64,000 bases of DNA from an uncultured Chloroflexia bacterium (GCA_963800795.1 CAWDCJ010000001.1:280855-344854); one strand, 5' to 3'; positions 4,394-51,960 are shown, counted from the stretch's first letter. Translations and numbers: made by a program. The notes: a model not told the origin generated them from the sequence alone.

Positions 4394-4418
4394 GCGGCGC
4401 ACCGGGACTCCGGCCGCC

Positions 4419-5666
4419 TCAGGGGCGGACGAACCCGTCGAAGTAGACGGACGGGTCACACGCGCCGGACGACGTGCAGGTGGCCGCGAAGACGAGCTTC
4501 TGGCCCTTCTGGATCACGATCGGCGTCACGTAGTGGAAATCGAGGTCGCGGAAGTTCTCCAGGCGGAGCGTGATCAGCACGAACCCGTCGCGCAGGAGCT
4601 GGAGCGTTCCGGACCGGCCGTTCGGATTGGCGAAGACCAGGTCGGTCATGTAGAACGTCGAGCTGAACGTCGCGGTCGACGGGTTGGACCCGTCCGCGGC
4701 CAGCCGCCCGTCCTGCGGCACGCCGTTGCCGACCGGTGCCGGTGTCGGCGTCGGCGGGCCGGCCGAAGCGGCCGGGCTTGGCGATGCGCCGGCTCCGGCC
4801 GAGGCTGCCGGCGAGGGCGACGGCGACGCGCCACCGGGCGCCGGGCTGGGTCCTCCAGCGCCGGCGGCAGCGCTCGGTCGCGGCGTGAAACCCGCGTCGG
4901 ACAGCGCCTGGGTTGCCGCGCTCTGGATGGCCGGCTGCAGGAAGAGAGCCCAGACGAGCGCAGCGAGGACGAGCAGGCCCAGCAGGGCGAGGAGCGCCGG
5001 CACGAGCCAGCGCGGCAGCATCGCCTCCTGGACCATCGTGCCGTCGAGGACGATGGGACGCCCGTCCTCGCCCGCGACGGCGACCTTGAACGGGCGCGTC
5101 TTGGGCTGGCCACGCCAGAATCGCGTCACCGGCCTGACCCGGACCTTCGCGAACCCGGCGGTGCCGGGCTCCACGACCAGGCCGGGCGGCTGCACGTCGA
5201 AGCCGAGCAGCTGGTCCGGGTCCGCCGCCGTGATCGAGGCGTTGAGGCGGGCGTTGCCGCGGTTGTCGACCGCCAGCTCGTGGGTGGCGGTGCGGCTGCC
5301 CCGGGAGGAGCGCGGGACCAGCTCGGCGAACGTGTCGCTGAAGGAGGCGACGCTGAGCACGCCCTCCTCGACGGCGGACCCGGCCGGGTCCTCCTGGGAG
5401 CGGGCGCGGATCCCGAAGGGCAGATCCCCAGACGGCGTCGTGGAAGCGCGCGGCGGGGCGAAGGAGACGACGGCGCTGCCTTCAGCTCCCGGGAACAGAG
5501 AGAGCGTCGGTGGCTCGGCGGATGCGAATGCACCCGGGTCGCCCAGGACGTCGATCGTGAACTGGTCCACGACCGTGCCGGTGTTCTTGACGGTCACCGT
5601 GCACGACACGACCGAGCCGGGCACGACCTCGAGCGCCTTCGAGGCGAGGCTGACGAGTGCTCCCAT
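4419..5666 (-). CDS. bitopic membrane protein: N-terminal tandem Ig-like (CARDB-like) modules, TM helix, Pro/Ala linker, small C-terminal beta-rich domain
   Basis: 415-aa ORF. N-terminus LEVVPGSVVSCTVTVKNTGTVVDQFTIDVLG, TM WLVPALLALLGLLVLAALVWALF, then a PSPAP-rich spacer. No family name recognised with certainty. Confidence 0.65.
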   Translation of the reverse strand: MGALVSLASKALEVVPGSVVSCTVTVKNTGTVVDQFTIDVLGDPGAFASAEPPTLSLFPGAEGSAVVSFAPPRASTTPSGDLPFGIRARSQEDPAGSAVEEGVLSVASFSDTFAELVPRSSRGSRTATHELAVDNRGNARLNASITAADPDQLLGFDVQPPGLVVEPGTAGFAKVRVRPVTRFWRGQPKTRPFKVAVAGEDGRPIVLDGTMVQEAMLPRWLVPALLALLGLLVLAALVWALFLQPAIQSAATQALSDAGFTPRPSAAAGAGGPSPAPGGASPSPSPAASAGAGASPSPAASAGPPTPTPAPVGNGVPQDGRLAADGSNPSTATFSSTFYMTDLVFANPNGRSGTLQLLRDGFVLITLRLENFRDLDFHYVTPIVIQKGQKLVFAATCTSSGACDPSVYFDGFVRP

Positions 5667-5885: not shown

Positions 5886-6563
5886 ATGTTGAGCGCCGTG
5901 CCAGTCTCCATCCGTCCCGCCGCCGCCCTGCCCGCCCGGGTCGAGCGCATCCCGGTGGCGATCGCGAGCACCGATCCGCTGTCCCGTGCCGGCCTCGCGG
6001 CACACCTGCGTGACCAGGCCGGCATCGACGTCGTCCCTGACTCTGCTGCCGGATCGGCGGCCGTGGTGGTGGTCGTCGCCGACGAGGTCGACGAGGAGAC
6101 GACCCGCGAGCTGCGGGGACTCCGGGCCGCGGGCCACGAGCGGCTCGTGCTCCTGGTGGCCAAGGTCGACGACGTCGGCCTGCTGGCGGCGGTCGAGGCC
6201 GGTGTGAGCGGCGTCGTCCGGCGGGGCCATGTGACCGGCGGCCACCTGGCGGTCGCGATCCGGGCGGCGGCGGCCGGGGAGGGGACCCTCCCACCGGACC
6301 TCCTGGGCAGGCTTCTGTCCCAAGTCGGGCGGCTCCAGCGCCAGGTGCTGCATCCGCGCGGGCTGACCTTCGCCGGCCTCACCGAGCGCGAGATCGCGGT
6401 CCTCCGCTTGCTCGCGGAGGGGCACGACACCGCGGAGGTGGGGCGCCGCCTCTTCTTCTCAGAGCGAACGGTCAAGAACGTCATCCACGACGTGACGTCG
6501 CGGCTCGACCTGCGCAACCGGACGCACGCAGTCGCCTATGCGATCCGCCAGGGGCTGATCTGA
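5886..6563 (+). CDS. LuxR/NarL-family transcriptional regulator with atypical receiver-like N-terminal domain
   Basis: ORF 5769..6563; start moved to ATG 5886, which is preceded by a purine-rich RBS. C-terminal LTEREIAVLRLLAEGHDTAEVGRRLFFSERTVKNVIHDV is a LuxR-type HTH. Confidence 0.8.
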   Translation: MLSAVPVSIRPAAALPARVERIPVAIASTDPLSRAGLAAHLRDQAGIDVVPDSAAGSAAVVVVVADEVDEETTRELRGLRAAGHERLVLLVAKVDDVGLLAAVEAGVSGVVRRGHVTGGHLAVAIRAAAAGEGTLPPDLLGRLLSQVGRLQRQVLHPRGLTFAGLTEREIAVLRLLAEGHDTAEVGRRLFFSERTVKNVIHDVTSRLDLRNRTHAVAYAIRQGLI

Positions 6564-6585: not shown

Positions 6586-7347
6586 CTAGAGGAGCAGGTG
6601 CTCCTCGTCGTCGATGTCGGCGTCCTCGCGCTGGATCGCCAGCTTCTGGACGTCCTCTTCCTCGTCCTCGCGGGCGTCCTCACGCTGGACCGAGGCCGCC
6701 GCCGCGGTGCCCGTGTCGCCGGCCCGCCCGGTCGTCATAACCCGGTCGGCCGTCGCCTCGGCGGCTCGCTCGAACCGGTCGCTGGGGCTGCTGATCGAGA
6801 TTCCGCCGGCTGCCGGGGTGCCCTCGACGGCACCGGACCGCTGCTGGACGACGTGGGTCAGCTCGTGGGCAAGGGTTCGCGCGCCCTCCGGGGACCCCTG
6901 ATCGTGTCCGTCGCCCAGGACGATCTCGTTGCCCACCGTGTAGGCATGCGCGTCGACCGCCCGGGCGGACGCTGCGGCTCCGCCGCCCGAGTGAACCCGG
7001 ACATCCGCGAAGTCGGTTCCGAAGCTCGACTCCATTCGCCCGCGCAGCTCGGGCTCCAGCGGGGCGCCACCCCCTTTGCCCACCACGCCCTTGACCGGCG
7101 ACTGCGGCTCCGGGTCGTCCTCGAGCAGCTGCGCAATGCCGGCGTTGCCGGCCATCCGCTGGAGTCGCAGGATGGACGCGGGACCCAACGCGTCGGTCCG
7201 GCCGGCGGCGGCCGCCCGGGCGGCGAGCGCTCCCGTGGCATCTTCGTGGTCGGTCCGGCGCATGGGCTGGCGAAGCGGCGTCTCCACCTCGTGCTCGTGG
7301 CGATGCATGCTCGCGTCCTCCCGCCTGACCGTGCCGTCATCCGTCAT
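6586..7347 (-). CDS. DUF4157 (eCIS-associated zincin-like, HExxH) domain protein with acidic C-terminal tail
   Basis: ORF 6586..7455; start moved to ATG 7347 (MTDDGTV), which lies clear of the ATPase stop at 7404. LEPELRGRMESSFGTDFADVRVH ... AHELTHVVQQ is the DUF4157 signature. The tail is EDAREDEEEDVQKLAIQREDADIDDEEHLLL. Confidence 0.85.
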   Translation of the reverse strand: MTDDGTVRREDASMHRHEHEVETPLRQPMRRTDHEDATGALAARAAAAGRTDALGPASILRLQRMAGNAGIAQLLEDDPEPQSPVKGVVGKGGGAPLEPELRGRMESSFGTDFADVRVHSGGGAAASARAVDAHAYTVGNEIVLGDGHDQGSPEGARTLAHELTHVVQQRSGAVEGTPAAGGISISSPSDRFERAAEATADRVMTTGRAGDTGTAAAASVQREDAREDEEEDVQKLAIQREDADIDDEEHLLL

Positions 7348-7403
7348 CGTCGTGCCCCCGTCAATCCCCGGGTCGCCGGCCGCGCCGCCTGACGCCGGAC
7401 ACC

Positions 7404-9489
7404 TCAGCTTGTGGCGATCACGCCGAACCAGGTGCCGAACTCGGCTTCGACACACAGGCGGCCCAGCTTTCGGTATTCGCGAGCGGTCTCGCGCACGAGG
7501 TCCGCCATCGCCAGCGGCCGCTCTCCTGCCGCCGCTCGGAATGCTGCGCCGACGGCCACGTTCCTGATGTTTCCTCCCGACAGCGTGAAGCGCCGGGCCA
7601 GGAAGTCGACGTCGATATCGTCCGCCTTGGGCACACCCGCGGACAGGTTGCGCTTCCAGAGGCGGCGACGATCCTCGACATCGGGTACGGGGAAGTCGAC
7701 GATCGCGTCGAGCCGCCGGAGGAACGCCTCGTCCACGTTGGCACGGAGGTTCGTGGTGAGGACGGCCATGCCGTCGAAGACCTCCATCCGCTGGAGCAGG
7801 TAGGCCACCTCCACGTTCGCATAGCGATCCCGGGCATCCTTGACCTCGGAGCGCTTGCCGAAGATCGCGTCGGCCTCGTCGAAGAGGAGGACGCCGTTCA
7901 CCCGGTCCGCTTCGTTGAAGACCCGGTCGAGGTTCTTCTCCGTCTCGCCGATGTACTTGTCCACGATCGTCGAGAGGTCGATCACGTAGAGGTCCAGGCC
8001 GAGCGACCCCGCGATCACCTCCGCCGACATGGTCTTCCCGGTCCCGGAATCGCCGGCGAAGAGGGCGGTCACGCCGCGGCCCTTGAGCGACGTCCGGCCC
8101 AGGCCCCAGTCGTCGAGGACGCGGTCCCGGTGGCGCGCGCGCGCCGTCAGCTCGCCGAGCTGCTCGATGACCGGCGCGGGCAGGACGAGGTCCGACCAGC
8201 CGACGCGCGGCTCGATCCGGCGCGCGAGCCGGTCCAGGCCGGCCGCGTTCTGCGAGCGCGCGCCCGCCGCGACGTCGCCCACCGCGAGGGCCCGGCCGGC
8301 TGCGGCCGCCGTGAGCCGGCCCGCCTCGGCGGCCCGCTCCACCTGCTCCGGTGCCAGCCGGTAGGGGAGCGCGGCGATCGCGTTCGCCATCTCGCCGGAG
8401 GCGGATCCGTCAAGGGCCGCGTGCCACGCGTCGCGGCGTTCGGCGGGCGTCGGGAGCTCCGCCTCGACGAGGAAGGCCACGGTTCGCGACCACGCCGGGT
8501 CCCAGCCGCGCGCGCCGTGGAGGACCGTCACGCAGGCTGCCTCCGCGAACGCCCGCACGGCGGCCGGCCCGCGCTCCGCGAGCACGTCGACCGGTCCCGC
8601 GACCAGCCCGCATCCGCGGAGGCGGGCCTCGCGGATTGCCGCGGTCGCGGCATCTGCCTCCTCGCGGGGACCCAGGCGGCCCAGGTCGACCACCACCGGC
8701 GGCGGCCCCAGGCGTGCCGAGCGCTCGGGCGGCCACCGTGAGCGGCGCCGTGCCGATGCGCTCCCGCACGTAGGCCAGCCGCGCCCCGGCGCGAAGGCCG
8801 CGCTCCAGGGTCGCCGAGCCGGCGAGGTCGCGATCGGATGGCGTGACCTCGAGGGCGGCAACCAGCGGGTCGGTCGTGTCGTCGCCCACGAGATGGCCGG
8901 CAACGCGGTCGGGAACCCGGATCGCCCGGGTCAGGTACGGCCGTTCGGTGTCCTCCACGACCAGCAGGCCGCCCGCCATGAGCGGGCCCGCGACCCCGAG
9001 TCGAGCGCGCCCGGCGCCGGACGCGCCACCCGCTCCGACGAGCTCGAGGGCCAGCCCGATGCTGGCACGGCGGCGGGAGACGTCGTCGTGGAGGTATCCA
9101 TACAGGCGCTCGAAACGCGGGTCGAGGTCCGGCGCGAGCGCCACCAGGAGGAGCTCGACGTCGAGCGGCTGGAGGTCGAACGCGCGGACCAGCCGCCGCA
9201 GGCGCACATCCACCCCGGCCGCCTCGGCTGCCTCGGCCTCCGCCTCGACGACCCGGAGTCGCTCGATGGACGCGGGATCCGGCGCGGCGGGCAGGAGCGG
9301 AGCCGTCCCGCCCGCCAGCATCTCGTCCACCTGGACATCCGAAACGTACAGGCCGCGAAACCGGTCGTCGGGATCCGGGTCCGTTGCCCTCCGCCGGGCG
9401 ACCGCCGCGCGGATCCGGGCCTCGATCAGCTCGAGTCGCGCCGCGAGGTGGCCGACGGAGGCGTCGGCGACCGGGGAGACGAGTGCCAT
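7404..9489 (-). pseudogene. eCIS AAA+ ATPase (Afp15/Pvc15-like), frame-disrupted in this assembly
   Basis: The N-terminal half lies in ORF 8410..9489 (MALVSPVADASVGHLAARLELIEARI...). The C-terminal half lies in ORF 7404..8903, with Walker A GDSGTGKT, LLFDEADAIFGKRSEV and VLTTNLRANVDEAFLRRL. The frames switch around 8697-8720 next to a GGGG run. Confidence 0.85.
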
Positions 9490-9495
9490 CGGCGC

Positions 9496-10230
9496 TCAGG
9501 GCCGCGGGTAGCCGCGGATCCGGTACGTCCGGCCGGGCCTCGCGGCCGTGCCGCCGGACACCGTCTCGTCCTGGGCGGCCGAGGCCGTATCGGGCTCCAG
9601 CGGGCCGCGGCTCGGGCGTCTCGCCCTCGCGGCCGGCCGCTCCGGCTTCCCGCCGTCACCCGGCTGCGCGATCGACAGGCGCGCCAGCTCCCGGACCGGG
9701 GCTCCCGCGACGACGCTTCGGCCCACGACGAACGGACTGTTGAAGACGAGGTCGAGCGAAGGCTTGAGCTCGCCGCCCATCGCCGACCAGACGTCCGCGA
9801 TGGACCGGTCCGGCCCGAGCGGCATGGCGACGCTGATCATCGCCGGCAGCGGCTGCTCCGCCAGCGCTCCGGTCATCTCCGCCGGGCCGAGGGTCTCGTG
9901 GCGGAGGAGCGCGCCGAGACAGGCCGAGAGAAGCCGGTGCTCGTCCTCGGGCCGCTGTGTCCAGGCAGTCACCATGTACTGCAGCTTGTAGTGGCGGGGC
10001 GGCTGCTGATGGCCGCTCACGTATCCCTCGGCCGAGTAGATCGGGGCCCACGCGGCGTCCCGGCGGGAGAGGTCCTCGCGGATGTCGTAGAGATAGAGGT
10101 TGATGGTCGGCGCGTTCCGGCGGGCCGCCCAGTCCTTGGTCGGGGCTTCGAACAAGATTTCGACCTGGCTGCCGCTCAGCACCTCGGTCCGGATCAGGCC
10201 CCGGAGCGTCTCGTCGACTTCCTCGATCAT
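9496..10230 (-). CDS. DUF4255 / Pvc16_N-type tail terminator (cap) protein (Afp16-like)
   Basis: ORF 9496..10305; start at ATG 10230 (MIEEVDETLRGLIRTEV...). NLYLYDIRED and HYKLQYMVTAW motifs are typical of the family. It lies directly upstream of the ATPase. Confidence 0.8.
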   Translation of the reverse strand: MIEEVDETLRGLIRTEVLSGSQVEILFEAPTKDWAARRNAPTINLYLYDIREDLSRRDAAWAPIYSAEGYVSGHQQPPRHYKLQYMVTAWTQRPEDEHRLLSACLGALLRHETLGPAEMTGALAEQPLPAMISVAMPLGPDRSIADVWSAMGGELKPSLDLVFNSPFVVGRSVVAGAPVRELARLSIAQPGDGGKPERPAARARRPSRGPLEPDTASAAQDETVSGGTAARPGRTYRIRGYPRP

Positions 10231-10518
10231 CCGGTGCACCCCAGGCTGCAGGTCGCGGATCCGCCGGTCGCGGCCGGCCCGGAACCGACGCCCGGACAGG
10301 CGCACGCACGGTGACGGGCACGACCGCCCGCCGGGTCACCTTGGCAAGACGGGCGCCCGACGGCAAGCCGCCTCGGGGCAGCCGATCGGGTCACCGCCCG
10401 TGCCCGATGGGGCACCACGACCGGCCCGTTCGGCTGTCCGGACGCCCGTTGTCCTGGCCGGATGCCCGGTGCACGCTCGAGCGGTCCCTACCTCCGCAGC
10501 CCGGGAGGGCCGATCCGC
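10231..10518. promoter_or_regulatory. divergent control region between the cap/ATPase arm and the sheath operon (elements unresolved)
   Basis: 288-bp gap between divergent starts. Contains GGTGAC...GTCACC inverted half-sites (about 10301-10340), a second GGTCACC (about 10388) and a GGGAGGG RBS at 10503-10509. Confidence 0.3.
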
Positions 10519-12036
10519 ATGCCGAACTACCTTTCGCCTGGCGTCTACGTCGAGGAGGTCCAGGCCGCCTCGCGCCCCATCGAGGGGGTCGGGACGGCCG
10601 TTGCGGCCTTCGTCGGCCTGGCCCAGAGCGGGCCCGCCAACACACCGCTGATGGTGACGAACTGGACCCAGTTCGTGACCACGTTCGGTGACTTCATGGA
10701 GGGGTCGTACCTCGCCCACGCGGTCTACGGCTTCTTCCTCAACGGCGGGACGACCGCCTACGTCGTCCGGATCGGCGCCGACGGCGCCGGCGCGCCGACC
10801 GCCCGCCTGGAGCTGCCGAGCTCCACGGACAAGGGCCAGGCCGCGTTTCGCGTTGTTGCCCTGGAGGCCGGGTCCGCGGGCAACAATGTCTCGGTCGAAG
10901 TCAGCGACCCGTCCGAGCCGGGCGAAGGTGTCTTCAAGCTGGTCGTGACGCGCGGCAGCGAGACCGAGGTCTACGACAACGTCAGCCTCAAGAAGGGCCG
11001 CAACAACGTCTTCACCGCCACGAAGACCTCCAAGCTGGTCCGCCTGGAGGAGACGGCCAAGGGCGACGTGGCCCCCGCCACCGGCACGAAGGCCGTGCTC
11101 ACGGGCGGGACCGCCACGACCCCGACCCGCGTGACGCCGGACGAGTACGTCGGCAACTCGGCCGACCGCACCGGCTTCGGCGGCCTCGAGGCGATCGAAG
11201 AAGTGACGATGGTGGCCGCGCCGGACCTGATGGCGCTCTACCAGCGCGGGGTCATCGACCTCGAAGGCGTCAAGGCCGTCCAGCTTGCGATCATCGCCCA
11301 CTGCGAGCTGATGGGCGACCGCGTGGCGATCCTCGACGCTCCACCCGACTACAACGCCCAGCAGGTCAAGGAGTGGCGCCAGGACAAGGCGGGCTACGAT
11401 TCCAAGTACGCGACGCTCTACTGGCCCTGGATCAAGGTCTTCGACCCGATCGCCGGACAGGCGGCATTCGTACCGCCGTCCGGCCACATGGCCGGGATCT
11501 GGGCCCGCAGCGACGGGGAGCGGGGCGTCCACAAGGCGCCGGCGAACGAGATCGTGCGCGGCGCCATCTCGCTCGAGCTGAACCTCACCCGGGCGGAGCA
11601 CGACCAGCTGAACCCGATCGGGGTCAACTGCATCCGCACCTTCCCCGGCCGCGGGATCCGCGTCTGGGGTGCCCGGACGCTCTCCTCCGATCCCGCGTGG
11701 CGCTACCTCAACGTCCGCCGGCTCTTCAACTACATCGAGGAGTCGATCCTGCTCGGGACGCAGTGGGTGGTCTTCGAGCCGAACGACATGGACCTCTGGG
11801 AGCGCGTGAAGCGCACGATCGGGGCCTTCCTCGTCCGCACCTGGCGTGACGGCGCGCTGTTCGGCGCATCGCCGGCCGAGGCCTTCTACGTGAAATGCGA
11901 CGGCGAGAACAACACGGCCGAGTCGATCGACGCCGGCCAGCTGATCGTGGACATCGGAATCGCACCGGTGAAGCCGGCCGAGTTCGTGATCTTCCGCCTT
12001 GCCCAGTTCTCCGGCGGCACGTCCCTGACGGAGTGA
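10519..12036 (+). CDS. contractile tail sheath protein (Afp2-4/Cis2-like)
   Basis: ORF 10462..12036; start at ATG 10519 after a GGGAGGG RBS. The N-terminus MPNYLSPGVYVEEV and the C-terminal WRYLNVRRLFNYIEESI...YVKCD region are classic sheath motifs. Confidence 0.95.
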   Translation: MPNYLSPGVYVEEVQAASRPIEGVGTAVAAFVGLAQSGPANTPLMVTNWTQFVTTFGDFMEGSYLAHAVYGFFLNGGTTAYVVRIGADGAGAPTARLELPSSTDKGQAAFRVVALEAGSAGNNVSVEVSDPSEPGEGVFKLVVTRGSETEVYDNVSLKKGRNNVFTATKTSKLVRLEETAKGDVAPATGTKAVLTGGTATTPTRVTPDEYVGNSADRTGFGGLEAIEEVTMVAAPDLMALYQRGVIDLEGVKAVQLAIIAHCELMGDRVAILDAPPDYNAQQVKEWRQDKAGYDSKYATLYWPWIKVFDPIAGQAAFVPPSGHMAGIWARSDGERGVHKAPANEIVRGAISLELNLTRAEHDQLNPIGVNCIRTFPGRGIRVWGARTLSSDPAWRYLNVRRLFNYIEESILLGTQWVVFEPNDMDLWERVKRTIGAFLVRTWRDGALFGASPAEAFYVKCDGENNTAESIDAGQLIVDIGIAPVKPAEFVIFRLAQFSGGTSLTE

Positions 12037-12077
12037 CCGGCCCGACCACGAACCGACTGACAGGAGGACACTGACAC

Positions 12078-12536
12078 ATGCCAGCTGGAGTTCCCTCGCT
12101 GCCGCAGGATGCCCTGGTCGCGCAGCGCTTCAAGATCGAGGTCAAGGGGACGACGATCGCCACGTTCCAGGAGGTCAGTGGCATCGTCTCCGAGATCGAG
12201 GTCGTCACGCTCAAGTCCAACGACATCCTGGGCAAGCCGATCGTGAAGCAGATGATCGGCGCCCAGAAGCCGCCGACCATCACCCTCAAGCGTGCCGCCG
12301 ACGCGAGCATGGACCTGTGGAACTGGCACAAGGCCGCCCGTGATGGGGACCTCGTGGGCGCCCGCCGGGAAGGTTCCATCGTCCAGCTCGACTTCACCCA
12401 CGCCGAGGTCGCCCGCTACAACTTCTTCGATGCCTGGATCTCCAAGCTCGAGGCGACGGGCATGAAGGCCGGCGACAACACCCCGGCCGTGGAGAGCGTG
12501 ACGATCGTGTGCGAGCGGCTCGAGCGGGTGAAGTGA
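12078..12536 (+). CDS. tail tube protein (T4 gp19-like; Afp1/Cis1-like)
   Basis: 152-aa ORF with an AGGAGGA RBS upstream. FKIEVKG...FQEVSGI...ITLKR pattern of eCIS tube proteins. Confidence 0.9.
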   Translation: MPAGVPSLPQDALVAQRFKIEVKGTTIATFQEVSGIVSEIEVVTLKSNDILGKPIVKQMIGAQKPPTITLKRAADASMDLWNWHKAARDGDLVGARREGSIVQLDFTHAEVARYNFFDAWISKLEATGMKAGDNTPAVESVTIVCERLERVK

Positions 12537-12537
12537 G

Positions 12538-12969
12538 GTGGTGCTCGACCTGATCGCAGGGCCGGCCGCCATGCGCGCGCCCGGCCCTGCGCCGGCGGGC
12601 CTGCGGACCGAGTTCCCGTTCGTGCTTCCCCGCGGCTACCTGGACGACGCGGGCGTCCTTCACCGCGAGGGCTCCATGCGCCTCGCGACGGCCCGGGACG
12701 AGATCGCCCCGCTCCGCGACCCTCGCGTCCGCGACAACGAGGCCTACCTGACGGTGCTCCTGCTCAGCGAGGTCGTGACAAGGCTGGGCACCGTCCCGCA
12801 GGTGACGCCACGCGTCATCGAGGGGATGTTCGCGTCGGACCTGGCGTTCCTGCAGGACCTGTACCGACGGGTCAACCAGGAGGGGACGTCGCAGGCCGCC
12901 GTGACCTGTCCGTCCTGCCAGCACGAGTTCAGCGTGGAGATCGGGGGCGCCTCGCCGGGGGGGTCGTGA
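12538..12969 (+). CDS. tail-assembly-chaperone-like protein (eCIS conserved ORF between tube and tape measure)
   Basis: 143-aa ORF with a GTG start 2 nt after the tube stop. FPFVLPRGY..HREGSMRLATARDEI...DLAFLQDLY resembles phage tail assembly chaperones. The position (tube, then this ORF, then tape measure) fits. Confidence 0.6.
   Translation: MVLDLIAGPAAMRAPGPAPAGLRTEFPFVLPRGYLDDAGVLHREGSMRLATARDEIAPLRDPRVRDNEAYLTVLLLSEVVTRLGTVPQVTPRVIEGMFASDLAFLQDLYRRVNQEGTSQAAVTCPSCQHEFSVEIGGASPGGS
12957..12963 (+). other. G7 homopolymer phased as G_GGG_GGG at the end of the chaperone-like ORF: candidate -1 frameshift or slippage site
   Basis: Codons ccg ggg ggg tcg tga. A -1 slip enters the frame of the small ORF 12966..13124 (..PGG|VVTYAADRLFEE..). 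Confidence 0.4.
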
Positions 12970-13124
12970 CGTACGCGGCCGACCGCCTCTTCGAGGAGGT
13001 CGCGTACGTCGCCTACCACTTTCATTGGCCGATGAACGAGATCCTCGACCTGGAGCACCCGGACCGGGCTCGCTTCGTCGCGGAGATCGCGGGAATCAAC
13101 CGGCGCCTGACCGAAGAGGAGTGA
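12966..13124 (+). CDS. small conserved eCIS-linked ORF (52 aa) in the -1 frame relative to the chaperone-like ORF
   Basis: Not in the ORF track (under 60 aa). Hand translation gives VTYAADRLFEEVAYVAYHFHWPMNEILDLEHPDRARFVAEIAGINRRLTEEE. GTG overlaps the upstream stop (GTGA). Third codon positions are G/C-rich. Confidence 0.55.
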   Translation: MTYAADRLFEEVAYVAYHFHWPMNEILDLEHPDRARFVAEIAGINRRLTEEE

Positions 13125-14479
13125 GCCCGTCGTGCGCTGGCCGTTCACCAACTTGTTTCGCGGGGCAGCGGCCCGCGAGGATGCCTCGTCCGCTGGGATC
13201 GAGACGGCGTCTCCAGGGGCCGACGAGCCTGCCGATCCCGGGCCCGCCGGTGAGTCGCGCCCGGCAGCCTGGCGGGACCTGCCCCCGGTGCAGCGCGCCG
13301 TCGGGGCGGCGCCCGTCACCGCGCCCAGCACGGCATTCGCGCGTGGCCTGGCCGGTCGGCGGGTGCCCGACCCGATGCTGGCGCCGCTCGCGCACGACAT
13401 GATGGCCGACGGGCCCGCGGGGCTGGTGAGTGGCCTCGCCGTGCCGCTGGTCCCGCGTGCCCCGTCCGTTTCCGATCCACGGTCCGCCGCCGACCTGCCG
13501 GCGCCCGCCGCCGATCGCATGCGTCCCCGGCCACGCGGCACGGTGTCGACGGCGGCGGCCAGTCCCCGCCTGGCCGGTCGGGAGGACGCGGCGGCCGACA
13601 CGAACGACCAGGGCGCGGCAGCCGTGCCCGGTGACATGGCGACGGCCGGTGGGCCGGAGTCAGGTCTCCCGACGATTGCGCAACGCGTCCTGCCGGTGGC
13701 CCGGATGGCCGCGAGCGGTCCGGCCGCGAGCGGGCCTGCCGCGCCCGCGCTGGCCATCGCGGCGACCCGGGTCGGCGAGGCCACCGCCCCCGCCCCGATC
13801 GTCGCGCGCGCGGTCCCGCTCGTGCCCGCCACAGCCGGATCCGCCATCGCCCCGGGGGCCTCGGAGCTGCCGGCGTCGACCACGGCCCCGGATGGCACCG
13901 GGCTGGCGAGTGGCCCCGTCGGGGAGCGGGCCGCCGACACCGGCCCAGGTGCCCGCGGATGGGGTCGATCGCGGGCCCGTGATCATCGGCAGGCGAACCC
14001 TGGGCGAGTCCCGCCGCCTTGGCCTGGGGGCGCCGCTGGCGGGGATCCCGCCGACGGCTGCACGGACGAAGGGACGTGCGGACCTGCCCGTGGCGCGGCT
14101 CGCCTCCCCGGCGTCGGCGCCGCCCGATCCGGCGTCCGTGGCGCGGGCGGTCCCGCCCCCCGTGGCCGCCGCCGCGGCGACGCAGGCGCCGCTTCCGCGG
14201 CTCGTGGTCGCGCGCCGGCCGCCGTTGGTTACGGGCTCTGGGTCGGGGACGGGTCCTGCGGACTCCGGACGTGAGGCCGAACGTCCCCTCGCGTCGCCCG
14301 CCGCGGTTGCCGCCGATACGGGTTCCGCCGGTTCGGTGGACGACACGACCGAGGCGACGCGCCTGGACCCGGCGCAGGGCGGGCGCACCGACGGCGGCGG
14401 CTCCGGCCCGGCTCGGCCGCTGGTCGGGGAGCAGCCGATCGCGGTGTCGGACCTGGCCCCCGGGGAGGCGCACGCGAAC

Positions 14480-14506
14480 GCCGACGCCGACGCCGATGCC
14501 GACGCC
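14480..14506 (+). repeat. (GCCGAY)n hexamer repeat encoding ADADADADA
   Basis: Read directly: gcc gac gcc gac gcc gat gcc gac gcc. Confidence 0.85.
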
Positions 14507-14599
14507 CGCGCCTTCGGGACCCTGCCGCTGCAACGCGCCACGCTGCCTCGTCCGCCGAGCGACGTCTCGGCCGCCGGTCGCGGCAGCGACGGTGACGGT

Positions 14600-14631
14600 G
14601 TGCCCGCTGACGGTCGTGCCCGCTGACGGCC
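14600..14631 (+). repeat. 16-bp direct tandem duplication (gtgcccgctgacgg + 2 nt, two copies)
   Basis: Copy 1 is at 14600-14613 and copy 2 at 14616-29. Each encodes VPADG, but in different frames. Confidence 0.85.
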
Positions 14632-15423
14632 CGCCCTTGCAGCGCAGCCGGGCGTCGGACGCGGCGGCTTCGCCGTCGCCGCCGGCCGGAGCTCAGCCGG
14701 CGCTCCGCGGCGCGCCCGCGACGGCCCCGTTGGTCGCCGGTCGCTCGGCGCGCCCGGGCGTGTCGCTGCCGGTCGCCACCCTGGCGCGCGCCACTTCGGC
14801 CGATCCGGCTGCGGTCACCAGCCGTCTCGCGACCCCGGTCTCGCCCGCCTTCGGAGGAGGGCAGGAGCGGGTTCCTGCAGCGGCCCGGGACGTGGCTCGT
14901 CCCGCGCCGTCCGCCGCGCCGGCCGCGGCCCTCCAGCGCGAGGAGCGCACGACCGCGGCGCGGGCAACGACGCTCGCCGATCGAGGATCGGGGTCCGCGG
15001 CGGCGACCGCGCTGCCGCTCATGCGCTCGTCGGCGACCGCGGCCGCGCCCGCCGCATTCCCGGCCGCCTTCGCGGCTGCCGGCCCGGACGATGCCGTCGG
15101 ATGGTCGCCCGCGACCGGGTTCACGAGCTTCGCCGCGCAGCCCGGTCCGTTCGTCCAGCGCGCCGTCCAGATCGATGAGCTGGCGGTCACGCCGGCGGGG
15201 GACGGCGCTGGCGGTGCGGCTCCCGAAACTGCGGGATCGGCTGCGGGTCCGTCAGGCGCGACCGCTGCGGGCGGCGAGGGCACCGACTACGAGGAGCTCG
15301 CGGAGCAGGTCTACGACAAGATCCGCGCGCGGCTGATGACGGAGCTGCTCCTGGACCGGGAGCGGGCCGGAATGCTGGTGGACTGGTGAGCGCCGCCGCA
15401 CGCCGGGTTACCGGGAGGTCGCG

Positions 15424-15849
15424 ATGAGCGATCCGGAGTACGGCCTCGTCCTTCGCTTCAAGGTCACCCTGGACGGCCACACGGAGCTCGGCGCCTGGAC
15501 CAAGTGCGAGGGCCTGTCCGTCGAGTACGACGTCCAGGAGATCAAGGAAGGCGGCCAGAACGACTACATCCACCGGCTCGCGGGCCGCGCGAAGTACCAG
15601 AACATCAAGCTGACCCGGCCGATCGACAAGGACACCGGCAAGGTCGCGACATGGCTGGCCTCCGTCGCCAGCGAACCGAAGCGCTCGACCGCGGAGATCC
15701 AGCTCCTCGACGCGGGCGGCACCAAGGTCACCTCGTGGAAGCTCGCGGGCGTCTACCCGGCGAAGTGGTCGGGGCCGACCCTTGACACGGGCACGAACCA
15801 GGTTGCGCTCGAGGTCCTCGAGCTCGTCCATAACGGGTTCACGCGATGA
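15424..15849 (+). CDS. second tail tube paralogue (Afp5-like)
   Basis: 141-aa ORF. FKVTLDG...WTKCEGLSVEYDV..IKEGG and LTRP patterns are shared with T4 gp19-like tube proteins. Confidence 0.85.
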   Translation: MSDPEYGLVLRFKVTLDGHTELGAWTKCEGLSVEYDVQEIKEGGQNDYIHRLAGRAKYQNIKLTRPIDKDTGKVATWLASVASEPKRSTAEIQLLDAGGTKVTSWKLAGVYPAKWSGPTLDTGTNQVALEVLELVHNGFTR

Positions 15850-16568
15850 TGCTCAGCGGCGGCCAACTCAAGCATGCGGTCCTGCGGGTCGAAGGCGGTG
15901 CCCAGGCGCCAGCCGATGGCGGGGAAGCCGTCGGCGAGCTTCAGTTCATGTACAACCCGGCCGAGATCACGACGAGCAAGGCCGCGAACTGGAACCGCCC
16001 GCCGGCTCGCGGCGCCCGCTCCGCGAGCAAGCCCGAGTACCACGGCGCGGGGCCGCAGTCGTTCCAGATGGAGGTCTGGTTCGACGCCTGGGACGACGCC
16101 GACGCGGACGTCACCCGGAGCGTGAAGGCGCTCCTCAACTGGACGAAGCCAACCAAGGCGTCGATGGACAAGGTGCCCCAGCCCCCGATCCTGACCGTCG
16201 AGTGGGGCGCGAGCCAGGTCTTCCAGGACTACCGCTGCTTCCTGAAGTCGGTCTCGGCGAAGTACGTCCTCTTCAAGCCCGACGGCACGCCGATCCGGGC
16301 CAGCTGCACGATCAGCCTCGAGGAGATCCCGGAGGAGCCGCAGGGCACGAACCCGACCTCCGGGTCCCGCGAGAGCCGGCGGAGCCTCGTCCTCGACGAG
16401 GGCGACAGCCTCGCCGGCGTCGCCTATCGCGAGTACGGCGACCCAAGCCTGTGGCGGGGGATCGCCGCCTTCAACGCGATCGACGATCCGATGCGGCTCA
16501 GTCCGGGAACGCGCGTGCTGGTGCCGTCCCTGGTCGAGGCCAGGCAGCTCTCCGGCCGGGAGTCCTGA
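15846..16568 (+). CDS. tube-initiator / LysM-domain baseplate hub protein (Afp7-like)
   Basis: 240-aa ORF with an ATGA overlap to the upstream gene. N-terminal tube-like fold motif FMYNPAEI and a C-terminal LysM (GDSLAGVAYREYGDPSLWRGIAAFNAIDDPMRLSPGTRVLVP). Confidence 0.85.
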   Translation: MMLSGGQLKHAVLRVEGGAQAPADGGEAVGELQFMYNPAEITTSKAANWNRPPARGARSASKPEYHGAGPQSFQMEVWFDAWDDADADVTRSVKALLNWTKPTKASMDKVPQPPILTVEWGASQVFQDYRCFLKSVSAKYVLFKPDGTPIRASCTISLEEIPEEPQGTNPTSGSRESRRSLVLDEGDSLAGVAYREYGDPSLWRGIAAFNAIDDPMRLSPGTRVLVPSLVEARQLSGRES

Positions 16569-16571
16569 GCG

Positions 16572-18351
16572 ATGCCCGACGCCCCGGTCGCCACGTTCTT
16601 CCGGATCGAGATCGACGGCCAGCCGCTCGACCCCGCCGTGGTTTCGAGCGTTCTCCACCTCACCGTGGACGACCATCTCGTGCTCCCCGACACGTTCGAG
16701 ATCGTGCTCCAGGAGACGCCGGACAGGGACGTGGCCAACAAGGCGCACGCGAGGATCGGGTCGAGGGTCACCATCTCCGGGCGGGCGCTCAGCGACCATG
16801 CGCCGATGCCGCTCTTCACCGGCGAGGTGACGGCGCTCGAGGGCGAGTACCGCGAGGCCAAGGCGCCGACGTTGGTCATCCGTGGCTACGACCAGGGCCA
16901 CCGGCTCATGCACGGGCGGCGCTCGGCCGTGTTCCGGCAGCAGAAGTACTCGGATATCGCGCAGCAGATGGCAACGCAGCTGGGGCTCGATGTCGGGACC
17001 ATCGCTGACTCGCGGACCGTGTTCGAGTACGTCCACCAGGCAGGCCAGACCGCCTGGGAGTTCCTGACCGACAAGGCAGACGAGGTCGGCTTCCAGGTCG
17101 GCGTGAACGATGGCAAGTTCAACTTCGCCCCGCCGCCGGCCGCGTCGAGCGGCCCCGATGCCGGCGACCTCAACAGCACCAACCCGCTCCAGCTGGTCTT
17201 CGGTCAGGAGCTGAAGGAGTTCCACCCACGGATGACGGCCGGGAGCCAGGTGGCCAAGCGTCAGCGTTCTCGGCTGGGACCCGTCCAGCAAGAGCAGCGC
17301 TGATCGCGCGAGGAACCGACCACGGCGAGCGGCGTTCAGCTGTCGGACACGCCGCCATCCGTGGTTACCGCGTTCGGCTCGCCCGGGTACGTGAGCGGGG
17401 ACAGGCCACGCACCACGCAGGCCGTCGTGGAGGCCGCCGCCAAGTCCCACGCCGAGCAGCACGGCAGCGCCTTCGCGGGGGCGACCGGGATCGCTGACGG
17501 CAACCCCAGGCTCAAGGCCGGCGCATCGGTCAACGTCTCCCTGGTCGCCGCGCCCTTTGCCGGGCGCTACACGCTGACGCACACCCGCCACGTCTTCGAC
17601 AAGAAGGGCTACCGCGTGCACCTCGACATGAGCGGTCTCCAGGAGCGGACGCTCCTGTCACTGGCCTCGGGTGGCGGCGGTGGCGCCGGTTCGGGGAGCG
17701 GCGGTGGCGGCGGTTCCGGGGGCTCCGTGCGAGGCGTGCAGATCGGCCTGGTGACGGACAACCAGGACCCGGACAACCAGGGGCGCGTCCGGGTGCAGCT
17801 GCCCTACTTCGGACCTGACTTCGTGACCAACTGGGCCCGGGTCGTCGCTCCCGGAAACGGCCAGAACCGGGGCTTCGTGTGGATTCCCGAGGTCCACGAC
17901 GAGGTCCTCGTCGCGTTCGACCACGGGGACATCAGCGAGCCGTACGTGCTGGGCGGCCTCTGGAATGGCAAGGACCCACCCCCGCCGATCGAGCTCGACG
18001 GGGACCACCTCGAAGGCCCGCAAGATCGTCAGCCGGACCGGCCAGAAGCTCGTCTTCTCGGACGAGTCGGGCAAGGAGGGGATCCTGATCTCCTCCGCCG
18101 ACGGCACGATCTCGGTCCTGGTGGACTCGGCCAACAAGAAGGTCGTGATCACGTCCGACGGGAGCGGAACCGTGGAGATGAAGAGCGGGGGCGACTTCAC
18201 GATCGACTCCCAGGGCTCCGTGAAGATCAGCGGCACAGCCGGTGTCGAGATCAGCTCGTCGGCGAGCACGAAGGTGAGCGGAGATGGCCAGCTCTCGCTG
18301 GAGTCCTCGGGCATCACGTCCGTCAAGGGCTCCCAGGTCTCGCTGGGCTGA
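16572..18351 (+). pseudogene. VgrG-like spike (gpD + gp5 OB + beta-helix; Afp8-like), three frame changes in this assembly
   Basis: The gpD-like N-terminus is in ORF 16572..17303. A short excursion to another frame at 17257-17299 reads SVSVLGWDPSSKSSA. The sequence returns to the frame of ORF 17361..18764 (Gly-rich linker, then VTDNQDPDNQGRVRVQLPYF ... GGLWNGKDPPP). It switches near 18012-18020 to ORF 17965..18351 (RKIVSRTGQKLVFSDESG ... beta-helix). Confidence 0.9.
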
Positions 18352-18362
18352 GGAGGGCCGCC

Positions 18363-18764
18363 ATGCTCAATGACGAGTTCATCGGCGCCGGCTGGGCATT
18401 CCCCCTGCGGACCGACGCGGCCGGCGGGATCGCCCTGGTCACCCGGGAACGCGAGATCGAGGAAAGCATCCGGCTGATCCTGGGAACGGCCCACGGGGAG
18501 CGCCCCATGCGCCCCGAGTTCGGCTGCGGCATCCACGACGAGATCTTCGCCCTGGCCGACGCGGCCACGTTCGCCCGGATTGCCGCCGACGTGCGCCGCT
18601 CGCTGCGCCGCTGGGAGCCGCGCATCGACGTTCGCGACGTGGAGGTGACGGCGGACCCGGACGACCAATCCACGCTCTACATCGACATTCGCTACTCGAT
18701 CGGGTCGGCCAACAACCCGCGCAACCTCGTCTTCCCGTTCTACCTGATTCCCGCGGAGGAGTGA
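18363..18764 (+). CDS. baseplate wedge protein, GPW/gp25 family (Afp9-like)
   Basis: ATG 18363 within ORF 17361..18764. MLNDEFIGAGWAFPLR...ESIRLILGTAHGERPMRPEFGCGIHD is the gp25 signature. Confidence 0.9.
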   Translation: MLNDEFIGAGWAFPLRTDAAGGIALVTREREIEESIRLILGTAHGERPMRPEFGCGIHDEIFALADAATFARIAADVRRSLRRWEPRIDVRDVEVTADPDDQSTLYIDIRYSIGSANNPRNLVFPFYLIPAEE

Positions 18765-18767
18765 GCG

Positions 18768-20717
18768 ATGGCGCTGCCGGTCCCCAACCTGGACGATCGC
18801 CGCTTCCAGGATCTCGTCGACGACGCGAAGCGCCTCGTCCAGCAGCGCTGCCCGGAATGGACGGACCACAACGTCTCCGACCCCGGCGTGACCCTCATCG
18901 AGCTGTTCGCCTGGATGACCGACCAGCTCCTCTACCGCGTCAACCGCATCCCGGACCGGAACTACGTGAAGTTCCTGGAGCTGATCGGGATCCGGCTGTT
19001 CCCGCCGTCGGCGGCACGCGGCCAGGTCACGTTCTGGCTCTCCGGGCCGCAACCGGATGCGATTCGCATCGCCGGGGGGACCCAGGCAGCCACGATCCGC
19101 ACGGAGACCGACGACGCAATCGTCTTCACCACGCTCGACGACCTGCCGATCGTGCCTGTCTCGGTCACGGCTGCCTTCACCTCGACCGACGGCAAGAAGC
19201 ACGTCGACCGGACCACCGAGGCGCTCAATGCGCGTGACTTTCTTGCCTTCGAGACCCAGCCCAAGCCCGGCGACCTCCTGCTGGTGGGCCTGAGCGAGCC
19301 CGCCCCATCGAACGCGCTCCGCCTCCGGTTCGCCTGCACCATCGAGGGCGTCGGGGTGGATCCGACCTGGCCACCGCTCGCCTGGGAGGCCTGGACGGGC
19401 GCGGGCTGGGAGGCCTGCGACCTCGATCGCGACACCACCGGCGGCCTGAACCGCGACGGCGACGTGGTGATCCACCTGCCGGCGGGCCATGTCGCGTCGG
19501 TCATCGAGAAGATGCGCGCCGGCTGGGTTCGGGCGCGCGTCACCGAGCCCGAGGAAGGACAGCCCTTCTACTCGTCCTCGCCAAACGTCCGCGGCGTCGC
19601 CGCTGCCACGATCGGGGGCACCGCCGAGGCGGTTCACGCGGACGTCATCGTGGACGAGATCCTGGGCGTCGCCGAGGGTGTTGCCGGCGGCCGCTTCCTC
19701 GTCAAGCATCTCCCGGTCGTGCCCGGTGATCGGCCCATGACCGTCAGCGTCTCGGATGAGGAGGAGGGCTGGCAGGAGTGGACCCAGGTCCCCGATTTCG
19801 CCGGGTCCGGCCCGGCGGACCGCCACTTCGTCCTGGACGCGGTGGCCGGCGAGATCTCGTTCGGCCCGGGTGTCCGTGAGGCGGACGGGACGGTTCGCCA
19901 GTACGGCGCGGTCCCGCCGAAGGGCGCCCGGGTCCGGCTGGACGCATACCTGACTGGCGGCGGCCGGGCCGGCAACCTGGCCACGCGTGCGATCAGCGTC
20001 CTGAAGACCTCGATCCCGTACGTCTCGCGGGTGGAGAACCGGCGGTCGATGGCGGGCGGCGTGGACGGCGAGGACATCGAGAACGCGAAGCTGCGCGGCC
20101 CCATCTCGCTCCGCACGCGAGGTCGAGCGGTGACCACGGAGGACTTCGAGCACATCGCCCTGGAGGCTGCCCCGGAGCTGGCCAGGGTTCGGGCCGTTGC
20201 CGCCGGCGACGGCGCCGACGCGGGCTCGGTCCGCGTGCTCGTGGTTCCATCGGCGCAGGCCGAGGGGGGCCGGCTTCGCTTCGACCAGCTGCTCCCCTCG
20301 GACGAGACCCTGGCGCGCGTCGCCGCGCGGCTCGACGAGTGTCGCGTCGTCGGCACGCGCATCCTCGTGGAGCCGCCGGCCTATCGCGGGATCACGATCG
20401 TTGCGCGCCTCCGGGCGCGACCGCGCTTCAACCCCACACGCCTGCAGGACGAGGCGGTGCGCGCGATCTACGACTACTTCAACCCGATCTCGGGCGGGCC
20501 GGAGGGCACGGGGTGGCCGTTCGGCCGCCCGATCCAGGTGGGCGAGGTCTACGCGGTGCTGCAGGGGCTGCGCGGGACTGAGCTGGTGGAGGATGTCCGT
20601 CTCTTCGGGGCCGACCCGGTCACCGGCCAGCGGGGACAGGCGACCCAGCGTCTGGACCTCGAACCGCATGCCCTGGTGTTCAGCTACGAGCACCAGCTGC
20701 TGGTCGAAGGGGCGTAG
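18768..20717 (+). CDS. baseplate J-like protein (Afp11-like)
   Basis: 649-aa intact ORF. The N-terminus LDDRRFQDLVDDAKRLVQQRCPEWTDHNVSDPGVTLIELFAWM is typical of the family. Confidence 0.9.
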   Translation: MALPVPNLDDRRFQDLVDDAKRLVQQRCPEWTDHNVSDPGVTLIELFAWMTDQLLYRVNRIPDRNYVKFLELIGIRLFPPSAARGQVTFWLSGPQPDAIRIAGGTQAATIRTETDDAIVFTTLDDLPIVPVSVTAAFTSTDGKKHVDRTTEALNARDFLAFETQPKPGDLLLVGLSEPAPSNALRLRFACTIEGVGVDPTWPPLAWEAWTGAGWEACDLDRDTTGGLNRDGDVVIHLPAGHVASVIEKMRAGWVRARVTEPEEGQPFYSSSPNVRGVAAATIGGTAEAVHADVIVDEILGVAEGVAGGRFLVKHLPVVPGDRPMTVSVSDEEEGWQEWTQVPDFAGSGPADRHFVLDAVAGEISFGPGVREADGTVRQYGAVPPKGARVRLDAYLTGGGRAGNLATRAISVLKTSIPYVSRVENRRSMAGGVDGEDIENAKLRGPISLRTRGRAVTTEDFEHIALEAAPELARVRAVAAGDGADAGSVRVLVVPSAQAEGGRLRFDQLLPSDETLARVAARLDECRVVGTRILVEPPAYRGITIVARLRARPRFNPTRLQDEAVRAIYDYFNPISGGPEGTGWPFGRPIQVGEVYAVLQGLRGTELVEDVRLFGADPVTGQRGQATQRLDLEPHALVFSYEHQLLVEGA

Positions 20718-20721
20718 GGCC

Positions 20722-21262
20722 ATGCGCGGGCACATTCCGGGCCTTCCCTCGCCGCGCCCGCTGGGCGAGCAGCTCCCCGGCGTCTACCGCGACGACGACA
20801 TGACGCAGCGCCTCACGTCGGCCTTCGACGAGGTGCTGGCGGGGGTCGTGCAGGTGCTGGACTGCTTCCCGGCATACCTGGATCCGGCCCTGGCGCCGGA
20901 GGATTTCCTCGAATGGCTGGGGCGCTGGACGGGCGCGGCACTCGACGAGACGTGGCCCATCGAGCGTCGCCGCGCGTTCGTCGCCTCGGCGGTCGACCTC
21001 TTCCGGATCCGCGGGACCGTTGGTGGCCTCGCGGCGCACGTTGCCGTGTTCACCGGCGGCGAGGTCGAGATCGCCGAGCCGGGCGCCACCGCGTGGTCGC
21101 ATGATCCGGGCGCTTCGCTCCCGGCCGGCGGCTCGTCGGACCTGTTGGTCAGGGTGCGCGTCAAGGATCCCGCCAACGTCTCGTCGAGCCGGCCTGGACG
21201 CGCTCGTGGCGACCGCCAAGCCGGCCCACGTGCCCCATCGGATCGAGATCGTCGCCGCGTGA
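20722..21262 (+). pseudogene. P2 gpI-like baseplate/tail protein (Afp12-like), one frame change
   Basis: ATG 20722 in the frame of ORF 20197..21564 (LPGVYRDDDMTQRLTSAFDEVL...FRIRGTVGGL). The C-terminus LDALVATAKPAHVPHRIEIVAA lies in ORF 21020..21262. The switch is near 21187-21195 (agccggcctggac). Confidence 0.8.

Positions 21263-47860: not shown

Positions 47861-51956
<4,096 letters not shown>

Positions 51957-51960
<4 letters not shown>

Follow-up and report, generated by a model that had tools for sequence, protein, structure and literature searches.

The contractile injection system (CIS) of Streptomyces coelicolor, CIS-Sc, is encoded by sco4242-4260 and belongs to subtype IId (Casu 2023, PMC10066040; Vladimirov 2023, PMC10020575; Casu 2025, PMC12237407). 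Cytoplasmic localisation, stress-induced cell death and dependence on CisA have been reported for this system (PMC10066040, PMC10020575, PMC12237407). Published HHpred analysis of CisA (Sco4242) places one zinc ribbon at residues 1-31, another at residues 219-246, before a transmembrane (TM) segment, and an NADase_NGA/discoidin domain at residues 319-464. Effectors of the Sco4256-58 family were already noted in IId loci of Chloroflexi by Vladimirov et al. (PMC10020575), and in S. davawensis DUF4157 proteins are CIS-associated effectors. In the IId systems of Roseiflexus (Chloroflexota) and of Deinococcota, cryo-electron tomography revealed particles lying within cells without attachment, and the authors proposed a cytoplasmic mode like that of Streptomyces (Gaisin et al. 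2026, PMC12998442). Here we describe a gene cluster within a 64,000-nt stretch of DNA from an uncultured Chloroflexia bacterium (GCA_963800795.1 CAWDCJ010000001.1:280855-344854), hereafter the window, which from its sequence appears to encode a chromosomal CIS of subtype IId, the Streptomyces-type "cytoplasmic" kind. We consider this explanation, taken whole and with the mode of action discussed below included, to be moderately probable.

Relation to Streptomyces and other injection systems

The window contains ~72% G+C throughout, and raw lists of open reading frames (ORFs) are consequently swamped by spurious overlaps. Genes were therefore called with a model of GC content at third codon positions (GC3), and the called genes were scanned with Pfam. 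A preliminary description of the window had proposed a contractile injection locus at 6586-21262, consisting of a plus-strand run from sheath to gpI and a divergent minus-strand arm. All gene families it named were found there by Pfam, in the order and orientation it gave; the family searches it had suggested returned significant Pfam matches for sheath, gp19 tube, gp25, Baseplate_J, Tail_P2_I, Pvc16_N and DUF4157. The bounds it set enclose the named genes but are too narrow: the cluster spans ~781-23595 and thus continues on both sides, where two CisA-like membrane proteins, a putative Sco4256-58-family effector, a PD40 propeller protein and a LuxR regulator are added to its members.

Assignment to subtype IId rests on best matches and pairwise identities of the sheath, baseplate J and other proteins. 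The best solved relatives of the sheath, Cis8, Cis11, Cis12 and Cis16 are all chains of the CIS-Sc cryo-electron microscopy structures, and the sheath aligns over its full length with PDB 8bky/8bl4 (E 8.5e-205; 8bky_A residues 1-501; phmmer). A cluster on a megaplasmid of Streptomyces sp. NBC_01426 carries the same genes in the same order; 13 genes were compared, and identities of the structural proteins range from 35% (tube, VgrG) to 61% (sheath, gp25, DUF6760). Sheath identity is 58-63% to Streptomycetaceae, 48-50% to Deinococcus plasmid copies and 39% to a cyanobacterium; with Serratia Afp only the C-terminal domain aligns. The set of components is that of a IId system: a single full-length CIS-Sc-like sheath; two tube paralogues and a Cis7/8/9/11/12 baseplate, with the broken Cis8 and Cis12 judged via orthologues in the related locus L013; an Afp15-type AAA+ ATPase (with one frameshift) together with a DUF4255 cap; a CisA-type bitopic protein after cis12, with a zinc-binding region before the TM segment and a C-terminal domain; and a Sco4256-58-type effector gene encoding a conserved N-terminal domain, one TM segment and a variable C-terminal domain.

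The likeness to CIS-Sc extends from Cis16 and Cis15 on the cap side through the order Cis2, Cis1a, two small proteins including DUF6760, a long low-complexity ORF, Cis1b, Cis7-9, Cis11, Cis12 and a CisA-type protein. A Sco4256-58-type effector, a DUF4157 protein and a LuxR regulator are common to both, and neither has a tail fibre, PAAR protein or recognisable tape measure. The differences are that the host is an actinomycete there and belongs to Chloroflexota here, with protein identities of only 35-61%; that two CisA-like paralogues flank the cluster in the window; that the effector carries a short, different C-terminal domain instead of RICIN; that Cis7 has no detectable LysM; and that in the window the genes for the effector, the PD40 protein and the regulator are found to the cap/ATPase side of the cluster.

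The Roseiflexus-type systems are likewise IId systems of Chloroflexota. No close cisA homologue was reported in Roseiflexus (PMC12998442), whereas the lineage of the window has clear CisA-type genes. The sheath of the window is nearer to those of Streptomycetaceae than to the Deinococcus plasmid copies. Among cultured organisms, the cluster of Solihabitans fulvus (Pseudonocardiaceae; locus L088) shares the core order, a zinc-ribbon/NADase-discoidin gene directly after cis12, and an adjacent PD40/Ig protein, Cep192_D3-type TM protein and GerE regulator. Its accessory genes, however, all lie downstream, while those of the window are mostly upstream, and its CisA-like protein is 33% identical.

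The Afp and PVC systems of Serratia entomophila and Photorhabdus are alike in their sheath-tube-baseplate plan, Afp15-type ATPase, Afp16/DUF4255 cap, gp25, baseplate J and gpI-like wedge. They differ in that the window sheath aligns through the C-terminal domain only (E ~1e-45 to 1e-52), in having three sheath genes where the window has one, and in possessing an Afp13 fibre, an Afp14 tape measure and a toxin cassette. No ORF of the window matched a tail fibre (Afp13-like), PAAR or canonical tape-measure (Afp14) family in Pfam or NCBIfam, and the gene that follows cis12 encodes a TM-anchored CisA-type protein.

The genes of the core machine are as follows.

7404-9489, minus strand: Cis15/Afp15-like AAA+ ATPase with an N-terminal winged-helix (WHD) variant; Pfam AAA in ORF 7404-8903, WHD in ORF 8410-9489
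9496-10305, minus strand: Cis16 cap (DUF4255/Pvc16_N); Pfam Pvc16_N E 5.7e-39, PDB 9gts_0A E 6.8e-57
10519-12036, plus strand: Cis2 sheath, 505 amino acids (aa); Pfam Phage_sheath_1 and Phage_sheath_1C
12078-12536, plus strand: Cis1a inner tube, 152 aa; Pfam Phage_T4_gp19
12538-12969, plus strand: conserved 143-aa protein with a C-terminal CxxC, placed after the tube and Sco4251-like by position
12966-13124, plus strand: DUF6760 small protein, 52 aa; Pfam DUF6760, 61% identical to the Streptomyces DUF6760 protein
13132-15389, plus strand: Ala/Pro/Gly-rich gene in tape-measure position; a single ORF of 747-749 aa in relatives L013 and L008
15424-15849, plus strand: Cis1b second tube protein, 141 aa; Pfam Phage_T4_gp19 E 4.6e-30, 44% identical to Streptomyces
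15846-16568, plus strand: Cis7 tube initiator/baseplate hub, 240 aa; Pfam CIS_tube, 39% identical to Streptomyces
16572-18351, plus strand: Cis8 VgrG-like spike, 584-587 aa if intact; Pfam Phage_GPD and Phage_base_V
18363-18764, plus strand: Cis9 gp25-like baseplate wedge, 133 aa, ATG at 18363; Pfam GPW_gp25
18768-20717, plus strand: Cis11 baseplate J-like protein, 649 aa; Pfam Baseplate_J, PDB 9gtp_1K E 2.3e-238 over the full length
20722-21262, plus strand: Cis12 (P2 gpI-like), 179 aa if intact; Pfam Tail_P2_I

The ATPase is 50% identical to its Streptomyces counterpart. The true start of Cis16 is probably the ATG at 10230, because the alignment with PDB 9gts_0A begins at query residue 26; the same start had been given for the DUF4255 cap in the preliminary description. 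The Cis1a protein is found, identical, on six public metagenome contigs. The 143-aa protein has no match in Pfam or NCBIfam and is 59% identical (E 2e-57) to the gene product at the same position of the Streptomyces cluster. In Cis7, earlier presented as a LysM tube initiator, the CIS_tube family was found, but Pfam detected no LysM (15846-16568) even at E<=1, whereas the Streptomyces orthologue has one. The intact Cis8 orthologue of L013 matches NCBIfam VgrG_rel with 534 bits and PDB 9gtr_q with E 1.6e-82, and the Cis12 orthologue of the same locus matches PDB 9gtp_E with E 8e-41.

An ORF at 17361-18764 carries both Phage_base_V and gp25, parted from the VgrG N-terminus by a single TGA, and suggested a VgrG-gp25 fusion or programmed read-through. 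This was dropped because the Arg-rich stretches of the ORF come from translation in the wrong frame, and because in relatives the two genes are separate and encode 584-587 and 133 aa. The alignment of Cis9 with the 133-aa protein of L013 spans its full length.

The ORF previously called tape-measure-like does occupy the tape-measure position; it has zero family matches in Pfam and NCBIfam, however, and in the window it is split over three frames. Its product contains 23% Ala, 13% Pro and 12% Gly and is conserved at the ends only, at the N terminus and in a C-terminal helix whose motif, YDxIxxRLxxELxxDRERxG, is common to the S. fulvus and Streptomyces versions. Searches with this protein by tblastn gave many spurious matches in GC-rich DNA, and just three collinear pieces were kept. 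The gene lies at 11535-13784 in L008 and at 16793-20500 in L090. In the Streptomyces plasmid record, the equivalent ORF of 1235 codons is mostly unannotated.

The preliminary description had left the host as uncharacterised and GC-rich. GC-rich it is, and its homologues make it assignable: sheath homologues with 72-94% identity are found almost exclusively in metagenomes and in metagenome-assembled genomes (MAGs) named Chloroflexota or Candidatus Limnocylindrales. A survey restricted to a single genome per species yielded 80 loci; Chloroflexota MAGs account for nearly all of them, Dormibacterota for a few and Eisenbacteria for one. Because the sheath homologues and the surveyed loci are nearly all from Chloroflexota MAGs, we assign the host, on sequence similarity, to an uncultured soil lineage of Chloroflexota related to Limnocylindrales. 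The nearest species representative, L007, shows 93% DNA identity, and the metagenome contig L001 97.9%.

CisA-like proteins, accessory genes and the region upstream of the sheath

Outside the core machine, the following features were assigned to the cluster.

21395-23595, plus strand: CisA-like membrane protein in the CisA position, directly after cis12; Pfam/NCBIfam NADase_discoid, TM helix, family alignment
781-2205, minus strand: CisA-like paralogue 2, 474 aa; Pfam Zn_Ribbon_1, DZR, DUF7577, F5_F8_type_C and NADase_transloc
2240-4402, minus strand: PD40 beta-propeller and Ig-like (choice-of-anchor D) protein, secreted or anchored, 720 aa; Pfam PD40, NCBIfam choice_anch_D
4419-5666, minus strand: putative effector of the Sco4256-58 family, 415 aa; Pfam Cep192_D3, BLASTP
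5886-6563, plus strand: LuxR/GerE-family regulator, 225 aa; Pfam GerE, 45% identical to the LuxR protein of the Streptomyces cluster
6586-7347, minus strand: DUF4157/eCIS_core protein, 253 aa, with a HELTH motif; Pfam eCIS_core E 1.6e-28
10360-10518, plus strand: candidate promoter/operator; alignments of positions -160 to -1 of the sheath ATG in L007-L086 and L090

The region directly after cis12 encodes a first zinc ribbon (~21395-21480), a Pro/Ala/Glu-rich repetitive linker, a second zinc ribbon, the basic segment PWYRRLFRRK, a TM helix and an F5/8-type-C discoidin domain of the NADase type. This domain plan is that of Sco4242 in the published HHpred analysis. The zinc-ribbon protein encoded after cis12 on the Streptomyces sp. 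NBC_01426 plasmid matches it with BLASTP E 4e-22 and an hhalign probability of 99.8%, and has the same Pfam content. The clean ORF within the region is 22687-23595, and 21395-23595 is either one long frameshifted gene or two genes. Between the zinc ribbons, at 21800-22700, lies a PEPAPAPEP-like tandem-repeat linker. Over half of the indels that distinguish the window from L001 fall within this linker, which is hypervariable or else poorly assembled.

Paralogue 2, at the opposite end of the cluster, likewise has two zinc ribbons, a Pro/Ala-rich linker, a TM segment (aa 246-264) and a C-terminal F5/8-type-C/NADase-type discoidin domain. It aligns with the CisA-like family and is kept in close relatives.

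The 415-aa protein consists of an N-terminal Ig/PapD-like region, a TM segment at aa 225-243, a Pro/Ala/Ser linker and a short C-terminal domain. By sequence it is a member of the Sco4256-58 effector family, because its residues 1-259 are 36% identical (E 1e-52) to a RICIN-domain protein of the Streptomyces plasmid IId cluster; the match covers the N-terminal region and the TM segment, and the architecture fits the published description of Sco4256-58. The DUF4157 protein is intact relative to L008 and 29% identical to its Streptomyces plasmid counterpart. By analogy with other systems it is a candidate cargo or loading protein.

The PD40 protein has a hydrophobic N-terminal segment and is syntenic in relatives. 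A PD40/Ig-like protein is also encoded beside the IId cluster of the actinomycete S. fulvus (L088 11646-14357), and in the CIS literature consulted we found no mention of a PD40 protein beside a CIS. The LuxR/GerE regulator was found in most related loci. As a set, the PD40 protein, effector and LuxR regulator are seen in many of the 80 related loci and again beside the S. fulvus cluster. A minus-strand gene at 23564-26635, which converges with the cisA-like gene, encodes a protein of ~1000 aa that combines a P-loop (AAA_22) at its N terminus with a DNA-binding domain (Trans_reg_C) and could be a second regulator tied to the system; a comparable 1238-aa gene occupies this position in the distant relative L089.

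Conservation in the 160 nt before the sheath ATG greatly exceeds that of the coding DNA. A TGCCC-N4-GGGCA palindrome accompanied by extra GGGCA/GCCC half-sites is present at -140 to -90 in 67 of 81 loci, against an expectation of 0.028, and the Streptomyces plasmid locus has a similar palindrome at -123. The palindrome is followed by TTG (-35-like), GAnnnT (-10-like, with the A and T invariant) and a Shine-Dalgarno sequence. A structured RNA in the ~160-nt leader was also considered. The single-sequence fold was not unusual (z -1.27), the predicted pairs were almost all invariant, with one covarying pair, a covariance model matched both strands because the core is palindromic, and the conserved blocks lie upstream of the -35/-10-like elements. 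Since the RNA tests were negative or uninformative and the blocks precede these elements, the conservation is read as that of a DNA operator. Region 10360-10518 is thus probably a promoter with an upstream operator for a conserved regulator, possibly the LuxR protein of the cluster. A scan of the window for consensus promoters and terminators gave 0 promoters, and terminators at chance level.

Frame disruptions

Several genes of the cluster are interrupted in the window. The ATPase gene has one extra C at 8717 and forms two overlapping ORFs, with the frame switch located at ~8700-8717 by tblastn with L008 and L013 proteins; relatives encode 694-695 aa. The Ala/Pro-rich gene at 13132-15389 runs through three frames by tblastn, and the GC3 model finds no single frame. 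The VgrG gene carries three surplus bases within 17259-17308, which give rise to an in-frame TGA (17301-17303), and it lacks two bases at ~18010 (a -2 frameshift). Cis12 has one extra C at 21189, and only after correction of the frame does it run to the stop at 21262 (tblastn frame 1, then 2). The cisA-like region changes frame too, and a disruption there is probable. Each window-specific indel that was compared is absent from five independent relatives (L001, L007, L008, L013 and L015), three of which are Illumina assemblies. Intact orthologues of the broken genes are present in L008, L012, L013 and L015, the Illumina assemblies that served as references for intact genes. L001 was rejected as a reference on account of indels of its own: five surplus bases fall in its AAA region, and its 691-aa ATPase ORF has lost the AAA signature and has no PDB match.

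Housekeeping genes of the window are broken as well. By Pfam, HypD and a class-III aminotransferase both have their C-terminal parts encoded in other frames; PFOR is split at ~49070 between ORFs 48340-49140 and 49098-53093, and a POR subunit makes an out-of-frame excursion at 54480-54772. The positions of the housekeeping disruptions are ~41450, ~49070, 51812-51955, 54480-54772 and ~60318. The HypD break is common to contig L087 and may be real or a systematic sequencing error. L001 and L087, the nearest public contigs to the window, bear Flye-style names and come from one ENA sample. Each carries a separate set of indels, at 1.5-3 per kb, and in L087 the HypF gene is split into three pieces. 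The relevant regions, L001 5337-7412 (minus strand) and L087 7889-9995, are from ENA ERZ25039477 contig_93539 and contig_93537 and contain many frame errors, which make both contigs unsuitable as clean references.

Because housekeeping genes are also broken and L001 and L087 differ in their indels, we attribute the frame breaks of the window, with fairly good confidence, mainly to long-read consensus errors of metagenome assembly. Apparent breaks are nevertheless some two- to threefold denser in the CIS region (~0.4-0.6 per kb) than elsewhere in the window (~0.2 per kb), and real decay in this strain therefore stays as a rival. On that account the frameshifts and the in-frame stop would be true mutations, and the cluster a non-functional remnant. 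The at least eight window-specific indels in five CIS genes, absent from all relatives examined, agree with it, as does the somewhat raised indel density. Against it speak the like breaks in HypD, the aminotransferase, PFOR and POR; the separate indels of the near-identical L001 and L087, at a rate typical of long-read consensus noise; the three single-base insertions within 50 nt that restore the frame, unlike random decay; and protein identity to relatives that stays far above DNA identity. Even the broken ATPase half is 98% identical in protein to L008, at 88% DNA identity. We therefore find decay unlikely.

Proposed mode of action and significance

The preliminary description held that target, payload and mode of action could not be read from the sequence. 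This was too cautious, since the mode of action and candidate payloads are partly readable through the CisA homologues, the Sco4256-58-type effector and the DUF4157 protein. By analogy with CIS-Sc, the system likely assembles inside the cell and then fires in a CisA-dependent manner at the cell's own membrane. Particles without tail fibres would assemble free in the cytoplasm on a Cis7/8/9/11/12 baseplate and be capped by Cis16, with the Cis15 ATPase needed for assembly. The CisA-like protein is predicted to keep its zinc ribbons and basic juxtamembrane segment inside the cell and its discoidin domain outside. Under stress this bitopic protein would couple the baseplate to the membrane of the producer and license sheath contraction, which would release or insert the TM effector and the DUF4157 protein and lead to death of the producer cell. 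As to the payload, one may speculate that it comprises the TM effector, the DUF4157 protein with its HELTH motif and perhaps the Ala/Pro-rich protein.

Several points weigh against this explanation. Localisation, firing and cell death are carried over from homologues alone, and the role of the system in Streptomyces is tied to a multicellular life cycle and may not apply to this host. The CisA match is a plasmid-borne Streptomyces protein at the CisA position, not SCO4242 itself. The missing LysM of Cis7 and the denser frame breaks of the CIS region, both described above, belong here as well.

Alternatively, the locus could encode a classical extracellular CIS (eCIS), in which lysis of a subpopulation frees particles that inject cargo into soil bacteria, protists or invertebrates, and in which the discoidin-domain proteins or the PD40 protein serve target recognition. 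The AAA+ ATPase and DUF4255 cap form the eCIS hallmark pair; Sco4242 was initially put forward as a fibre, with a C-terminal domain similar to carbohydrate-binding modules; and the literature has yet to settle what IId systems do in Chloroflexota (PMC12998442). However, the 64 kb contain no Afp13-like fibre gene and no lysis cassette, the TM segment that follows a strongly basic segment in the discoidin proteins fits anchoring in the producer membrane, and in the nearest relatives that have been characterised the particles are intracellular, with contraction occurring on lysis. We judge extracellular action to be improbable. The label "eCIS" used in the preliminary description thus stands as far as it denotes the CIS lineage, but its "e" is probably wrong, as the Streptomyces type works, by homology, inside the producer cell.

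Placement in the eCIS lineage, rather than among prophage tails, tailocins or type VI secretion systems (T6SS), was borne out by the hallmark families, the ATPase and cap pair included, and by the context of the cluster. By Pfam, the rest of the 64 kb encodes ABC transporters, CbiMQ, Fur, dehydrogenases, CoA transferases, a two-component system, PFOR, HypFCDE and TusA/DsrE, and the surroundings of the CIS are chromosomal housekeeping. The earlier statement that capsid, portal, terminase, integrase, lysis and T6SS membrane genes are lacking was upheld by Pfam on all called genes of the 64 kb, among which the T6SS families TssJLM, TssA and the ClpV recycling ATPase also had no match. tRNA and Rfam scans of the window gave zero matches. 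A defective prophage tail module or R-type tailocin, for which the contractile phage-tail ancestry of all the structural genes could be cited, is very improbable given that the 64 kb hold no head, packaging, integrase or holin/endolysin genes and no tRNA attachment site, that GC content is uniform over the window, that phages and tailocins lack the Afp15-type ATPase, DUF4255 cap, DUF4157 and CisA proteins present here, and that the locus and its chromosomal flanks are conserved across ~80 species-level MAGs.

Earlier publications already describe this family with its structure and CisA dependence, and report it from Chloroflexota. What appears to be new is the lineage, the presence of CisA-type genes outside Actinomycetota, and the conserved accessory set and operator; in the literature searched we found no published link between Limnocylindria and contractile injection systems. 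The Streptomyces-type CIS, including its CisA adaptor, is thereby extended to Limnocylindrales-type Chloroflexota and to Dormibacterota, groups which are abundant in soil and have no cultured representatives with this system. The CisA-type genes described here offer a way to test how these intracellular particles get to the membrane in bacteria other than Actinomycetota, and the accessory set (PD40, Sco4256-type effector, LuxR) and the upstream palindrome are candidates for studies of regulation and payload.

We suggest, tentatively and as something that may well not hold, that a complete, CisA-equipped cytoplasmic CIS with a conserved promoter/operator of its own is vertically maintained across an entire class of abundant, uncultured, possibly unicellular soil Chloroflexota and in Dormibacterota. 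If so, the common GCCC-N4-GGGC operator would point to a regulator conserved from Streptomyces to Chloroflexota, and regulated cell death by means of a CIS would be widespread among soil Terrabacteria and not a speciality of filamentous, developmentally complex bacteria.

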